Positions 16,708-21,295 of a DNA stretch of 64,000 nt are shown here, one piece after another. Source of the stretch: a bacterium (GTDB lineage: Bacteria > Patescibacteriota > Minisyncoccia > Phycocordibacterales > UBA12088); contig QKEV01000007.1 of assembly GCA_003252295.1 (NCBI GenBank), forward strand, positions 80,139-144,138, given 5' to 3'. Numbering within the stretch: the first letter of the stretch is position 1; each line of letters opens with the position of its first letter. The notes beneath the pieces are model-generated. The model ran no database searches. It was not told the origin of the DNA and saw nothing but the letters and a program-made list of their open reading frames with translations. A program made the position numbers and the translations under genes.

Positions 16708-16796
16708 GTTCCCTTGTCCTAATGCACCACTAGGAGTGAATGTGTTACCTGTAGTATATCAAAAGTGTTAAAAAAGAAAAATCACCTGATTATTTT

Positions 16797-17684
16797 TTAA
16801 TTAAGGAAGTTGGCAAGTTTTCTTGTTGCTCCTTTCCCAAAGGTACTATCTATAAGTCTAACAAAAGGCAGTATGTTACCAGTTACTTGTGCCTTAATAA
16901 AAATATCAATAATCTCTTTCTTATTTGTAAATCGACTTTCGTCCTTAGAAAAAATAAGATCTACAAACTCAAGAAATCTTTTTACTTCTTTTTGTCTGCT
17001 TGTATCAACAGTTTTACCACTCTCGTTAAGTAACTCAAGTTCTTCCTTAAACATCTCGTCATTTTGTATAACTTCGTTAAAAAATCTTTTTGTCATGTAT
17101 CCAGTAAGTGCTTCATCAACTGGTCCAAGAAGTTTATCTTCAGCATTTTGACGACTAAAAATATGTAAACCAGTGCGATAGTTTTGCAACATCCCCTCCT
17201 TTGTTATCTGTAGAGCATTATATGAAGCAAGTCTGTGCCAAAGTTCATGAAAGGTTGTGATTGCTGTCTCAATATCAGATCTACGATCAATTTTCACCTC
17301 ACCAAAAAATGATGAATGACTGCCTTGTAGTAATCTTCCTCCAGAAATCTTTTCTAGTGAACCTTCTTTAAGTAAGTGAATATGTTCATCAGTTATGTTT
17401 ACAAACTCATCTTTACCATACTGTTTCGCATACTCGATTACCGTGTTTTTTACCAGTGCGATCAGTTCCAGATCTTCGGGAGTTTTTTTAAGTTCATATT
17501 TCTTGTACTTACTTGCACCTACTTCTCTATACACCTTTTCAAGAATTACTTCTGGGTCAGTGATCAAAGTCCCATTATCAGAATAGATGCAGTCATGTAA
17601 CCGTGTTTCTAACTCCATATAGTCCATATCATTTTCAGAACCCACTAGTTTTTCGTAGTGTGAATTTAGAAACTTTTCACTCAT
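16797..17684 (-). CDS. HExxH-motif protein, putative zincin-like metallopeptidase. Paralog of the 20211..21149 gene.
   Basis: ITTFHELWHRLAS, then NYRTGLHIFS, then C-terminal TFGKG. These are alignable to LLHEMTHYVS / ARTGYKIVS / SFGKK in the paralog. Leaderless start (TATACT-N7-ATG). Confidence 0.55.
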   Translation of the reverse strand: MSEKFLNSHYEKLVGSENDMDYMELETRLHDCIYSDNGTLITDPEVILEKVYREVGASKYKKYELKKTPEDLELIALVKNTVIEYAKQYGKDEFVNITDEHIHLLKEGSLEKISGGRLLQGSHSSFFGEVKIDRRSDIETAITTFHELWHRLASYNALQITKEGMLQNYRTGLHIFSRQNAEDKLLGPVDEALTGYMTKRFFNEVIQNDEMFKEELELLNESGKTVDTSRQKEVKRFLEFVDLIFSKDESRFTNKKEIIDIFIKAQVTGNILPFVRLIDSTFGKGATRKLANFLN

Positions 17685-17755
17685 TTACAAAGTATACATA
17701 CTACACCTTACTGTTGCCAGGTTGTTGTAGAGTACTAGAATATGTATATAAAAAA

Positions 17756-17786
17756 CAGGGAGAGCTGCTAAACTCTCCCTTTTTTG
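17756..17786. terminator. Bidirectional rho-independent terminator
   Basis: aaaaaa-cagggagag-ctgctaaa-ctctccct-tttttt. Confidence 0.65.
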
Positions 17787-17789
17787 ATT

Positions 17790-18240
17790 CCCAGAACCTA
17801 GGATGTGTTGTTTCCAACAAACACCGTTAAGCGGTCAACTGGGTCCATGTTCCCGTGATGTAGCACCAACCAAACTGGAAAAACTATTCGTTATTCTTAC
17901 CCAAAAAATTCTTCCGTCAGTTGCACCACTCGAAGCTTCGGTACTAGGCTACGCCTTCGCCTTCCTACACTGCCGCACCTCAAAGGTAGGTTGCCAGATT
18001 TAAAGACCTTAGCTGTCGATCTGTATCACCCGCGACTTAGTTTACAAAGTAAACACACTACTACCATAACTCCTGGTTGTCACGTTATAGTGACCTCTCG
18101 TTCCGCAGAACTTAAAACATGGAAAGACCTACTAAACAAGTTATAAGAAATGTTAAATTATTACAAGTTTACAAACAGCAGTAAGTATTATGATTTCATT
18201 TATTTATCAGTTCCCTTCTAATAAAGCTACAAAGAGTTAA
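17790..18240. ncRNA. Candidate structured non-coding RNA of unknown identity and unresolved strand
   Basis: About 450 nt with no credible ORF in a compact genome. It is bracketed by two strong intrinsic terminators (17756-17786, 18241-18271). A degenerate copy of the island leader motif lies at 17805-17825 on the + strand. Confidence 0.3.
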
Positions 18241-18271
18241 GCGCCATACCGTGAAAAGGTGTGGCGCTTTT
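18241..18271 (+). terminator. Rho-independent terminator (+ orientation)
   Basis: gcgccatacc-gtgaaaa-ggtgtggcgc followed by ttttat. Confidence 0.6.
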
Positions 18272-18728
18272 ATAAAAAATACCGTGGAGAAATTCTTCCT
18301 TTAGGGTTTCCGGTACAAAAAATGCACCATTTCACATCTCTAAGAGATGTCGTATCGGAGTGTCGTCCTTCGCGATACAGCTCAAAGTCTGTATCCAACT
18401 TAACTCCGCGATGCTACCGGTTGCTTCCACCCTCCTTTTGGGGAAGATGTACTCTGGATACCACATAGGTAAAAGTTGATCTTGAGACGGTTTTCTCTCG
18501 CGACCGCGTTTAGTCCGTGTTTGTGGTCCAACAACCCCTGGTAAACCAGGTTTGCCCTGTTCCCATTTCAGATTTCCGTGGTCATCTGTCCCGAGAATCG
18601 ATTTTTTCTTTCTTGAAAGAACTCGCTCCATACTTAAAATAGCATATCCAATCATCAATGCAAATCATTTTTAAGTACTGGCTGTCCCCCCTTCGTTGAA
18701 GCTACAGCGGATAAAATCTGGGACAATG

Positions 18729-19151
18729 TTAGAACTTTTTTGCTAACAGATGCAAATGTTTAACAATGTTTGCAATTGACATCCAAATTCCGAGAGTAAT
18801 AAACACAATTAAAAGATAAAAGAAAGTGGTATCAATATCTGAGTATCCTATCATTTCTCCAGAATGTTGAGTATTACTTGATAATGAAAATACAGCACCA
18901 TATGAAATGTAAAAGTAACCTGTAATTATTAACAGCAACACTCTTGAGAGTAAAAAAAGTACCGACATAATATTTTTAGGAATTTTAAGCTGCTTCTTGA
19001 ATATCAATATAATCATCAACATTGGTGATACACCAAAAGACAATACCAAGAACCAAAAGAAATTTCCAAAATATATTACACTACTCAAAAAAAGAACATC
19101 AAAAGTTAAGTACACTTTCGATTTAGTTTGTATTGGTGAAGTATTTTTCAT
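18729..19151 (-). CDS. Small polytopic membrane protein, hypothetical (island gene D)
   Basis: 140 aa, about 4 TM helices. Preceded by the conserved leader ...CAGTTCCGAGTCCTAGGTTGTTTGTGTATATACT-GAGATT-ATG. Confidence 0.5.
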   Translation of the reverse strand: MKNTSPIQTKSKVYLTFDVLFLSSVIYFGNFFWFLVLSFGVSPMLMIILIFKKQLKIPKNIMSVLFLLSRVLLLIITGYFYISYGAVFSLSSNTQHSGEMIGYSDIDTTFFYLLIVFITLGIWMSIANIVKHLHLLAKKF

Positions 19152-19197
19152 AATCTCAGTATATACACAAACAACCTAGGACTCGGAACTGGGTCGA

Positions 19198-19764
19198 TTA
19201 TTTTGTTGGTTCATAGGATAAACCAGGAGTGTCTAAATCGACAAATGGAACACCAATAAAAGTAGCTAACTCATTAGCAACCTCTTTTAATTTTTTTAGC
19301 TTTAAATCAAAAACCTTAACTCCGTTAACACTCATTCCACCAGATGAGGATGTGCTAAGTCTTCTGATGCCACCATCTCTGGTTTTTAAAGCAAGTTTGT
19401 ATTTTCTTGTTCTGTTGTCATTTTTATCTCTGCCATTAATATAATGAATCATGACATGTTCGATTTCAGAAAAATCATAATCAGTCTTCAACTTTTCTTT
19501 TGACCACACATGTTTTTTATAAACAAATACTTTTCTTCCCTGCAAATCTACAACAACCTTTATAGTGCTTGTAAACAGAGTAATAAATAAACCTACAACA
19601 AAAAAAATCCCAATAGGAACAAGGTAACGTATATTTTCATGCCAAGGTATAAAAGCAAGAAGTACTACTGGTGCAATTATAAAAAAGATAAAAATTATTA
19701 TTCTTGCAACTGTATGACTCTCAATTAGTGTTAATGTATTACTAGTTTTTTGTTTTATTTTCAT
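19198..19764 (-). CDS. Membrane protein (2 TM helices plus cytoplasmic domain), hypothetical (island gene C)
   Basis: The ORF table starts at GTG 19779, but ATG 19764 (MKIKQKT...) sits 6 nt after the conserved TATACT of the leader motif. Confidence 0.5.
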   Translation of the reverse strand: MKIKQKTSNTLTLIESHTVARIIIFIFFIIAPVVLLAFIPWHENIRYLVPIGIFFVVGLFITLFTSTIKVVVDLQGRKVFVYKKHVWSKEKLKTDYDFSEIEHVMIHYINGRDKNDNRTRKYKLALKTRDGGIRRLSTSSSGGMSVNGVKVFDLKLKKLKEVANELATFIGVPFVDLDTPGLSYEPTK

Positions 19765-19808
19765 AAATATAGTATACACAAAAACAACCTAGCACTGGAA
19801 CTGCAAAA

Positions 19809-19855
19809 AAGAATCAGGTGAGATGTGCCCATTGGGTAGTAATCACCTGATTCTT
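19809..19855. repeat. Split inverted repeat aagaatcaggtga...tcacctgattctt (13-bp arms, 21-nt spacer), followed by T-run. Bidirectional terminator-like.
   Basis: It shares arms with the perfect palindrome at 21190-21219. Confidence 0.6.
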
Positions 19856-19956
19856 TTTGGTGGCCGTCCTCCTCTACTACAACTAGAGCAGATAAGATTT
19901 AGAACAATACACACTACGTACCGATCAATGCTCAGGTACTAGGGTTAGGACTTTTG

Positions 19957-20184
19957 TTACTGATTCTCAGACTGATTTCGCTCCTCAGCTAATCTAAGTA
20001 TTTCATCCTGATCAACCTTATCAGGAAAGCGAAGCTCAACCTCACCCCACATTATCAGCCCATTCCTATAATCATCCACTATACTTTCAATGGTAGGATA
20101 CCGCTCTCTTGCTTCTTCACCCTGTTCAACATTCAATTCCCTTTCTTATGCAAGTTCATCATTAAAATTTTCTATTTTTTCCAT
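19957..20184 (-). pseudogene. Small ORF (island gene B) interrupted by an in-frame TAA after codon 12. Possible pseudogene or leader-peptide plus downstream ORF.
   Basis: MEKIENFNDELA-TAA-ERELNVEQGEEARERYPTIESIVDDYRNGLIMWGEVELRFPDKVDQDEILRLAEERNQSENQ-TAA. It is preceded by the conserved leader motif (GTGTATACT-N8-ATG). Confidence 0.3.
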
Positions 20185-20210
20185 ACTTAGTAAGTATACA
20201 CAAAAACAAC

Positions 20211-21149
20211 CTAGGATTCACTCTCAATTGGATTGTTTTCAATGTAGGAAAATATTTCACTTTCGGTATTTTCTTTTGTATCCTCATCTTCTTCTGAAAA
20301 ATATTTTTCAATGAGACGAAGGAGTGCTTCTTCCTTATGTGCGTCCACATGAAGGTATGTTCCTAGTAACCCTAGGATCTTTAAAGATTTTTTACCAAAA
20401 GAATCACCAACTTTCTTTAAAACCAGCAAGTTCTGAGTAAATAATCCTTTAAGAAAATCTGTGTAAACTTCACGTTTATTAGCAAGTGTATCAATAGCAA
20501 TTTTTTCTACAATAGGATTTAGTACGTCAATATACTCCGCATACATATACTCATTATTTTCCAAATCATTCTCTGAAATACCGTATTCACTCTCAAGATA
20601 TTCTTGATTTTCATAAAGTGTTTGTGATACAAAAAAATCAACAAGCAATTCATTTAAACCTATAAAAGCTTTTTTTTGCTGTGGTTTCCAGTTTGAAACT
20701 ATCTTATATCCTGTCCTTGCTACATTAATATTGTCTTGTGATGCAAAAAATTTTCTTTTTGATACATAGTGTGTCATTTCATGGAGTAGTGTTGTAATAA
20801 GTGTTAGCTGATCTGAACATTTATCAATATTGATATAGATAGCATCTTCAACTGAATCAAATATCCCTCGAGAATTTGTTTCAAATTTATTTATAAAATC
20901 ATCCGATGAAAGTAGATGGATTTTTGAACTATCTATAGCAACTTGTTCATTAAAACCAAGTTCTTCAAGTTTATTAATCAAAAAATCGTTTAAAAAATCA
21001 ATCAATTCAAGCACCTCATTACTTTTAGTGATCTCATTTTCAATCGGTTGAGTAAACTGCTCTCTATACTTATCTAAATCAGCTTTTAAGGTAGTTTTTT
21101 CATCTTCCTTATACGTTCGTGTGCCTATAAAATTTGATTCTATACTCAT
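20211..21149 (-). CDS. HExxH-motif protein, putative zincin-like metallopeptidase. Paralog of 16797..17684 (island gene A).
   Basis: LLHEMTHYVS...ARTGYKIVS...SFGKK. ATG at 21149 (MSIESN...) is 7 nt after the TATACT of the leader. The ORF table starts at an upstream TTG. Confidence 0.55.
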   Translation of the reverse strand: MSIESNFIGTRTYKEDEKTTLKADLDKYREQFTQPIENEITKSNEVLELIDFLNDFLINKLEELGFNEQVAIDSSKIHLLSSDDFINKFETNSRGIFDSVEDAIYINIDKCSDQLTLITTLLHEMTHYVSKRKFFASQDNINVARTGYKIVSNWKPQQKKAFIGLNELLVDFFVSQTLYENQEYLESEYGISENDLENNEYMYAEYIDVLNPIVEKIAIDTLANKREVYTDFLKGLFTQNLLVLKKVGDSFGKKSLKILGLLGTYLHVDAHKEEALLRLIEKYFSEEDEDTKENTESEIFSYIENNPIESES

Positions 21150-21189
21150 AAACACAAGTATACACAAAACATCCTAAGACTCGAACTGA

Positions 21190-21219
21190 AAGAATCAGGT
21201 GATTAATCACCTGATTCTT
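21190..21219. repeat. Perfect 30-nt palindrome aagaatcaggtgatt|aatcacctgattctt between island gene A and tRNA-Gln
   Basis: Exact inverted repeat. Half-sites also occur at 16780-16792 and 58484-58494. Confidence 0.7.
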
Positions 21220-21224
21220 TATTG

Positions 21225-21295
21225 CTGCCGGACTAGGACTCGAACCTAGATTAACGGGACCAAAACCCGTCGTCCTACCATTAGACGATCCGGCA
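21225..21295 (-). tRNA. tRNA-Gln (anticodon UUG)
   Basis: Minus-strand UGCCGGAUCGUCUAAUGGUAGGACGACGGGUUUUGGUCCCGUUAAUCUAGGUUCGAGUCCUAGUCCGGCAG. 7-bp acceptor stem, D-loop AAUGGUAG, anticodon loop UUUUGGU, T-loop GGUUCGAGUCC. CCA is not encoded. Confidence 0.8.

Follow-up and report, generated by a model that had tools for sequence, protein, structure and literature searches.

A stretch of about 1 kb, located between positions 17684 and 18729 of a 64-kb window of a Patescibacteria (Candidate Phyla Radiation, CPR) genome, was found to be non-coding and to derive, on the minus strand, from a copy of the 23S ribosomal RNA (rRNA) gene; the window is the whole piece of DNA that was analysed. The stretch cannot be a working rRNA gene: it scores far below the Rfam threshold and has lost essential parts, and neither domain V nor 16S or 5S was detected. 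Its right-hand part, named unit 1, is a homologue of a closed sub-domain of 23S domain I (E. coli nucleotides (nt) ~205-460), and a second copy of unit 1 was found in a metagenomic contig, L087. We lean, by a modest degree, towards the view that the stretch is a relic of a 23S gene copy whose domain-I piece, unit 1, is maintained as a stand-alone RNA.

The stretch is flanked by a 295-aa gene ending at 17684 and by a 140-aa open reading frame (ORF) ending at 18729, both on the minus strand. Two patches within it have a G+C content of 46-52%, compared with 28-35% in the surrounding island. An identical 6.5-kb contig is present in an independent assembly (Logan, SRR7216773); the sequence of the stretch is thus not an assembly artefact.

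Homology of the stretch to 23S rRNA

The features on which the analysis rests are the following:

18634-18281, minus strand: unit 1, an RNA-like element of ~350 nt shared with the metagenomic contig L087 and homologous to a sub-domain of 23S domain I.
18615-18629, minus strand: 5' strand of the closing helix P1, GGAGCGAGUUCUUUC, pairing over 15 bp with 18286-18299.
18286-18299, minus strand: 3' strand of the closing helix P1, GGAAGAAUUUCUCC, within a 35-nt block identical in the window and L087.
18314-18416, minus strand: insertion of ~100 nt in the loop of a native 23S hairpin (CCGG...CCGG), located by covariance-model alignment.
18241-18267, minus strand: terminator-like, G+C-rich hairpin of 10 bp right after unit 1, kept in L087; unflagged in the window by the consensus scan.
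18332-18658, minus strand: 108-aa ORF judged spurious, an orphan overlapping unit 1.
17924-18030, minus strand: unit 2a, a remnant of 23S domain II, located with covariance model R2.

Contig L087 aligns to positions 18660-18240 of the window (minus strand), and the two copies of unit 1 are ~74% identical. Conservation between them is uneven: 35 nt in one block are identical and identity elsewhere is ~65%. The ends of unit 1 and its trailing hairpin are the same in L087 as in the window, and the unit stands there in a different gene context: the hairpin ends at position 480 of the contig and is followed, 27 nt later, by the start of a P-loop protein (..RGNSGSGKSTVAKRL.., positions 508-585). This neighbour beyond the trailing hairpin differs from that of the window. 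No copy of unit 1 beyond those of the window and L087 was found in five collection scans aimed at it (two of metagenome contigs and three of viral contigs) nor in three other viral-contig scans for further copies, no paralogue of it was found in the island or in unit 2, the left part of the stretch, and blastn searches of phage and plasmid collections returned nothing matching the stretch.

A covariance model (CM) was built from the two copies of unit 1 only (R1) and used, with filters off, to search six real 23S genes; the reference set comprised eleven such genes, that of E. coli and ten from plasmids or chromids. The model, which scores ~410 bits on itself, matched the genes of Limosilactobacillus (40.1 bits), Bacillus (31.5 bits), a cyanobacterium (26.6 bits) and Clostridioides (12.8 bits), all at one place, 23S nt ~213-490; unrelated matches did not exceed 7.9 bits. 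Local alignment to the consensus of the Rfam large-subunit (LSU) family gave z = 6.3 for both copies of unit 1, compared with about -1 for the opposite strand and 0.7 for unit 2.

The CM alignment of unit 1 with real 23S rRNA showed a helix-for-helix correspondence in which every native helix is kept. P1 consists of a native 23S helix in its outer part and of an extension in its inner ~10 bp. The AGGG/CCCU pairing of unit 1 is the native long-range helix AGCC/GGCU with two pairs flipped. The hairpins at 18550-18537 and 18449-18428, to which the initial annotation had drawn attention, exist and are both native 23S hairpins. The long helix UUGGACCAC/GUGGUAUCCAG is native as well, with its interior shortened from 83 to 48 nt, and a native 5-bp hairpin with a 6-nt loop carries in unit 1 an insertion of 107 alignment positions (~18416-18314). 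Over the stretch, 23S motifs occur in matching order: AAGAAAG..AUCGAUUC, GGGCAAACC-hairpin-GGGGUUGU.GGACC, GGUAUCC.GAGUA, CAGCUAAGGUC and ACCGAAGCU. The correspondence of the helices, with both ends of the element at one native helix, identifies unit 1 as a closed sub-domain of 23S domain I that was excised at a helix.

Simpler comparisons were less informative. Neither blastn nor nhmmer aligned unit 1 to E. coli 23S, a comparison without power, since the E. coli sequence has diverged too far here. A chaining alignment that allowed cheap gaps gave no information, shuffled sequences scoring equally high, and a stricter chain test gave a P of ~0.02 only. Two early assignments made by eye were not borne out: that of the 3' third of unit 1 to 23S nt 440-530, where the CM alignment shows the insertion in the hairpin loop, and that of the trailing hairpin to 23S nt 565-590.

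A second CM, R2, was built from nt 975-1175 of 11 real 23S genes and run over the whole window with filters off. The segment 18030-17924 (minus strand), unit 2a, scored 30.1 bits (E = 2.4e-6) and was the only significant match in the 64-kb window, the runner-up scoring 10.1 bits. Unit 2a keeps the helix CAGCUAAGGUC/ACCGAAGCU (23S nt ~985-1015 / ~1145-1170); the interior of this helix, the site of the GTPase-associated centre in real 23S rRNA, has shrunk from 129 to 46 nt. Units 1 and 2a share one strand and follow each other as in 23S rRNA; neither of them can function in a ribosome. When a tiled profile of 11 23S sequences was searched with nhmmer against the window and L087, the top six matches all fell in the stretch or in the homologous part of L087; the window matches were all on the minus strand and the best ones included unit 2a. 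Nothing beyond chance was found with this profile for domains III-VI in the window. No 16S or 5S rRNA was found in the window by Rfam, nor by searches with E. coli 16S and 5S tiles, which have low power.

Rfam by itself does not reveal this origin. At gathering thresholds the sole match in the whole window was tRNA-Gln (21224-21295). The LSU model (RF02541), whose gathering score is 50 bits, had no match in the window at threshold, and none at E <= 10 on four sub-ranges (17500-19000, 18220-18700, 18275-18640 and 17745-18245), where the matches of any family were at chance level (sraA, sar, IMES-3 and drum). A permissive cmscan of L087 by itself aligned it to RF02541 at positions 104-510 (13.8 bits, E = 0.054). 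RNase P RNA, transfer-messenger RNA (tmRNA), signal recognition particle (SRP) RNA, 6S RNA and group I/II introns gave no family-model match at E = 10. The initial annotation had recognised no RNase P RNA, tmRNA, SRP RNA or tRNA in the stretch and had proposed a comparison with Rfam; ARAGORN found no tmRNA there, and Rfam detected no RNase P, SRP or tRNA, no family at threshold and none convincing at E <= 10. The suggestion made in the same place, of an RNA of unknown identity or a missing housekeeping RNA, has to be replaced: CM R1, CM R2 and the helix alignment identify strongly diverged parts of 23S rRNA.

Coding potential and pairing in unit 1

The ORFs between 17684 and 18729 are all short and overlap one another. 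None of them matched Pfam, and all had negative coding scores under a 3-periodic Markov model trained on the window's long genes. With the 108-aa ORF an orphan, this agrees with the initial annotation, which had seen no credible ORF here.

Gene callers annotate 18332-18655 as a gene, so the 108-aa ORF (18332-18658) was analysed separately. Its coding score was -0.034 bit/nt, compared with 0.06-0.14 in core genes, and its frame was the best of the six. Among 5.8 billion protein clusters it matched itself only. An exhaustive HMMER search of 1.84 billion representatives gave one weak match (P0135; E = 4e-5, 57% identity over 42 residues), a singleton encoded on L087, which is an ENA contig of 585 bp.

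The alignment of the two copies of unit 1 contains seven indel events of 1 or 2 nt each, which break both predicted ORFs. The translated similarity is equal in all three frames, and mismatches are spread over the three codon positions with no third-position excess (29:30:31 in the frame of P0135 and 34:27:29 in the frame of the 108-aa ORF). The best-conserved block, the 35 identical nt, lies 3' of both stop codons. Taken together, these observations show conservation of the nucleotide sequence and not of a protein. The 108-aa ORF was judged spurious because it overlaps unit 1.

That 18332-18658 encodes a small basic protein, to which the similarity with L087 would be due, is what the gene callers, the P0135 match and the rank of the frame among the six would suggest. 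This explanation is contradicted by the negative coding score, the lack of any further homologue in the 5.8 billion clusters or the 1.84 billion representatives, the frame-breaking indels, the three-frame similarity without third-position excess and the position of the most conserved block beyond both stop codons; in addition, the same DNA resembles 23S rRNA in sequence and structure. We consider it very improbable. A conserved small protein at this place was the alternative named in the initial annotation; the indels and the flat distribution of codon-position mismatches speak against one.

A consensus fold common to both copies, closed by P1 (18629-18615 / 18299-18286), was obtained. Its energy was -86 kcal/mol, compared with -47 +/- 5 kcal/mol for column-shuffled alignments (z = -8.1; none of 200 shuffles was as good), and the consensus fold of the plus strand gave z = -1.9. 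Folded as single sequences, the copies of the window and of L087 gave z = -3.96 and z = -1.98, respectively. P1 includes G-U pairs, which are possible on the minus-strand RNA only; because of them the pairing of P1 is specific to one RNA strand.

Constraint on pairing was assessed without circularity, the fold being taken from one sequence and the pairing judged on the other. The window's own fold has 101 pairs, of which 84 are still pairs in L087. Simulations in which substitutions were placed at random columns kept 68 +/- 4 pairs, and none of 5,000 reached 84; random bases at the same columns kept 79 +/- 2.7 pairs (P = 0.047). The reciprocal test gave P = 0.0018. Double compensations numbered 11, compared with 5.9 expected (P = 0.006). 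In the consensus structure, which was derived from the same two sequences, eight double changes were counted and no pair was broken. The insertion also contains predicted helices (helices 13 and 15) with double compensatory changes between the copies. As to the covariation that the initial annotation had put forward as a check of a structured RNA, substitutions tend to keep pairing beyond the simulations; this comes from the single pair formed by the window and L087, and gene conversion from the real 23S gene might also have produced it.

Left half of the stretch and the variable island beside tRNA-Gln

The left half of the stretch contains, besides unit 2a, the following features:

18062-18240, no strand assigned: A+T-rich spacer of 179 nt with 31% G+C, matching nothing.
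18040-18061, minus strand: near-copy (19/22) of the promoter and start region of the 295-aa gene; repeat family D18.
17792-17920, minus strand: G+C-rich tail of unit 2, including the hairpin GUGUUUGUUGGAAACAACAC; 23S origin not confirmed.
17757-17780, both strands: bidirectional intrinsic terminator closing the stretch, found by consensus scan.

The spacer showed no similarity to 23S rRNA, to L087 or to anything else searched. The near-copy at 18040-18061, compared with its model at 17682-17704, has ACT in place of ATG; judging from its sequence, it is a possible promoter of unit 2, from which a transcript of ~285 nt that stops at the 17757 terminator could start. The tail (17920-17792) could be aligned locally to E. 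coli 23S nt 1579-1791, an alignment that 2 of 200 shuffles equalled, and loosely to 23S nt 1580-1797. A third CM, R3 (23S nt 1595-1800), found nothing in the tail nor elsewhere in the window, and the assignment of the tail to 23S nt 1600-1797 was not confirmed. The remainder of the stretch, 18240-17790, is most likely an inert remnant.

The observations of the initial annotation were confirmed, and its interpretation holds in part. The structured RNA locus described there is non-coding and derived from an RNA gene, and its right-hand ~350 nt are conserved and structured on the minus strand; the left half (17786-18042) folds like shuffled sequence. The terminator at 17757-17780 was flagged on both strands; the second, at 18241-18267, is a real hairpin that went unflagged in the window, and in L087 its counterpart is followed on the 3' side by the U-run UUUUCUGUUU on the minus-strand RNA. 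A degenerate copy of the island leader is present at 17797-17813; the leader recurs hardly more often than chance would give (2 copies compared with 0.2 expected; 2 of 100 shuffles reach 2).

The DnaX protein of the window genome is at most 62% identical to that of any species representative, the best matches being in metagenome-assembled genomes of the Kaiserbacteria and Parcubacteria type. The gene order Dus-DnaX-histidine phosphatase-tRNA is kept in relatives (the tRNA of the window is tRNA-Gln) and synteny ends at the tRNA. Since gene content beyond the tRNA varies from genome to genome, the stretch lies inside a variable island (about 16800-21170). The island (16800-21224) has a G+C content of 28-35%, compared with 44% in core genes, and is located directly downstream of the 3' end of tRNA-Gln. 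No integrase and no att repeat were found at the tRNA-Gln island, and the idea of an integrase remnant was dropped, no such frames being present. Searches of the loci of four homologues of the 295-aa gene and of 80 loci around DnaX relatives (blastn, tblastx, nhmmer and CM) found nothing like the stretch; the homologues of the 295-aa gene occur in contexts other than that of the window, and for the closest relatives in the protein collection the contigs end before reaching the homologous region.

The small genes of the island share a promoter-like module, CCTAGGTTGTTTTTGTGTATACT followed after 6-9 nt by ATG, and often have a terminator of their own. Such putative modules were seen on the minus strand at 19145-19183, 19758-19796, 20180-20218, 21140-21178 and 17682-17704, and a similar one lies upstream of a 92-aa gene in a relative (L002). 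With the -10-like box so near the start codon, the mRNAs of the island genes would be leaderless or nearly so. A near-identical terminator hairpin (AAAAAGAATCAGGTGA ... TCACCTGATTCTTTTT) occurs at 19803-19858, 21189-21220 and 16780-16798; it follows several island genes and also adjoins tRNA-Gln, and looks like a repeated module rather than a set of independent terminators.

The 295-aa gene (16797-17684) and a 318-aa gene (20211-21167), both on the minus strand, encode paralogous hypothetical proteins whose HExxH-like motifs (HELWH and HEMTH) suggest a metallopeptidase. The family of the 295-aa protein has ~50 members with 24-58% identity (most of them 37-58%) and is without Pfam assignment. 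Four fetched loci of the family look Patescibacteria-like, and in one of them (L006) a member directly follows the same tRNA. The membrane-like ORF of 140 aa (18729-19151, minus strand) had a leave-one-out coding score of -0.06, and one pipeline calls it with only 79 aa (18729-18968), so that its extent or reality is uncertain. The acidic ORF of 59 aa (19957-20136, minus strand) has no Pfam match; its score of 0.078 bit/nt is like that of core genes, and it is probably a real small protein.

Maintenance or decay, and comparison with known systems

The maintenance of unit 1 as a stand-alone RNA is favoured by several of these results. It begins and ends with the strands of a single native helix, which has been extended, not eroded. 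Substitutions preserve pairing, also within the insertion that is without rRNA counterpart. Conservation is patchy, and the unit with its trailing hairpin recurs in L087 beside a different gene.

One further feature lies upstream of the unit:

18666-18680 (box at 18674-18680), minus strand: weak -10-like box CAGTACT with ATG 5 nt downstream, a candidate promoter for unit 1, from the sequence only.

L087 has a partly conserved counterpart of the box (TAGTATT...), and the TATACT-N6-9-ATG modules carried by the island genes are similar to it; the box is a possible promoter of unit 1. In the mechanism that we propose, unit 1 would have a minus-strand transcript that starts at a weak promoter of its own or comes from read-through of the gene upstream; this transcript would end at the hairpin 18267-18241, and the product would persist as a stand-alone folded RNA. 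Most likely it would act by mimicking the part of the large subunit from which it comes and would bind the protein that normally recognises this part, an early-assembly ribosomal protein or an rRNA-binding factor. As a tentative extension, for which we would not claim an even chance, unit 1 may be an exapted piece of 23S domain I, clamped by a stem, enlarged by an insertion and maintained, as a decoy or scaffold, in the variable islands of certain Patescibacteria. Its partner would then be a ribosomal protein, an assembly factor or a toxin or defence protein that targets the ribosome.

A number of points weigh against maintenance. Motifs universal to 23S rRNA have degenerated and much of the gene is missing, as in a pseudogene. 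Unit 2 (17786-18042) is without counterpart in L087, and its folding was no better than that of shuffles on both strands (z = 0.0 and +1.5). The -10-like box of the window is a poor one. The known copies of unit 1 are two, and the covariation thus rests on one pair of sequences. An identity of 74% would fit fast neutral decay if both source organisms were close, and the compensatory changes in rRNA-like helices could be due to gene conversion from each organism's real 23S gene. A mimic or decoy function, which unit 1 possibly has, is deduced purely from the retained fold of the sub-domain.

These points lead to the strongest alternative, a plain pseudogene: a second or transferred 23S copy that is decaying without function, the fold of unit 1 being inherited and still unerased. 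It would account for Rfam LSU scores of at most 13.8 bits against a threshold of 50, for the deletion of the GTPase-centre region (129 to 46 nt), for the shortened helix interior in unit 1, for the failure to detect domains III-VI, 16S and 5S in the window, for the shuffle-like folding of unit 2 and for a location in a variable island absent from relatives. It does not explain readily why the ends of unit 1 coincide with one native helix that was lengthened rather than eroded, why 35 nt are identical compared with ~65% identity elsewhere, why pairing is kept beyond chance, including in an insertion without rRNA counterpart, or why unit 1 and its trailing hairpin are found in a different gene context in L087. 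We regard a plain pseudogene as a possible explanation, if on the whole a doubtful one.

A genuine 23S gene in pieces was also considered, the pieces being its exons and the island ORFs lying inside very long insertions. Insertions of at least 100 nt are carried by 77% of CPR 23S genes, up to 5.7 kb in total (PMC9297842), so that long insertions are usual in this group, and the two pieces of the stretch lie on one strand in 23S order. Real exons, however, would far exceed the Rfam threshold, which nothing in the window does; CM R1 gives real 23S genes only 13-40 bits, compared with ~410 on itself; nt 1595-1800 and domain V were undetected in the window and the interior of the GTPase centre is gone; and the copies of unit 1 are only ~74% identical. 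The low scores and the deletions exclude this reading, to which we attach very little probability.

The least probable explanation, an undescribed housekeeping or large ornate RNA (a variant RNase P RNA, tmRNA or SRP RNA, or an RNA like ROOL, GOLLD or OLE), would fit a long, structured element with G+C above its surroundings and a hairpin at its end, but no Rfam family matched even at E = 10, ARAGORN found no tmRNA, the element is absent from the syntenic loci of relatives and is present in two copies in the collections searched, and the established 23S-like identity accounts for the fold. Three other candidates were rejected: a tRNA gene split by a group I intron (an idea taken from PMC13011429), as no tRNA halves flank unit 1; a tmRNA, as tRNA-like ends are lacking; and a miniature inverted-repeat transposable element with terminal inverted repeats, which is ruled out by the strand-specific pairing of P1.

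A kilobase of rRNA-derived DNA within a variable island was unexpected. As a pseudogene the stretch would be ordinary; it would be notable if the domain-I piece turned out to be an exapted RNA. As a mere relic, unit 1 illustrates that diverged rRNA fragments slip below Rfam thresholds and are labelled by pipelines as orphan 'hypothetical proteins', as occurred here. Should unit 1 be maintained, it would stand as a clear example of a non-coding RNA newly arisen from an rRNA sub-domain and would provide a natural, autonomous folding unit of domain I for tests of protein partners. No description of such an rRNA-derived element in Patescibacteria was found in the literature.

Among known systems, the stretch shares with bacterial 23S rRNA (RF02541) the order of motifs, the same helices and model matches in both directions (R1 and R2). 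It differs in being far below the family threshold, with ~460 of ~2,900 nt recognisable and helix interiors deleted, in the extended closing helix and the added ~100-nt insertion of unit 1, and in its location in a variable island, not in an rRNA operon, with no domain V, 16S or 5S found nearby. Being below threshold and lacking most domains, the stretch is best filed as an rRNA-derived remnant. Like bacterial rRNA pseudogenes and orphan partial rRNA genes, it is a truncated, diverged and non-functional copy outside an rRNA operon; unlike them, unit 1 has the strands of a native helix as its exact limits, is conserved in one other organism, in a different gene context, and shows pairing-preserving changes.

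The large ornate and related RNAs ROOL, GOLLD, OLE, raiA and HEARO resemble unit 1 in size class, in their multi-helix fold and in their occurrence in variable or mobile regions near tRNA genes; unit 1 differs from them in that no Rfam match was obtained and its fold is explained by 23S homology. The action proposed for unit 1 would be analogous to that of the leader mimics bound by ribosomal proteins (L20, L10, L1 and S15), which present an rRNA-like surface outside the ribosome. These mimics are short (50-150 nt) and cis-acting, are located in the 5' leaders of ribosomal-protein operons and usually have a local resemblance to rRNA that is thought to have arisen independently, whereas unit 1 is 350 nt long, visibly derived from rRNA and free-standing, with no adjacent ribosomal-protein gene.

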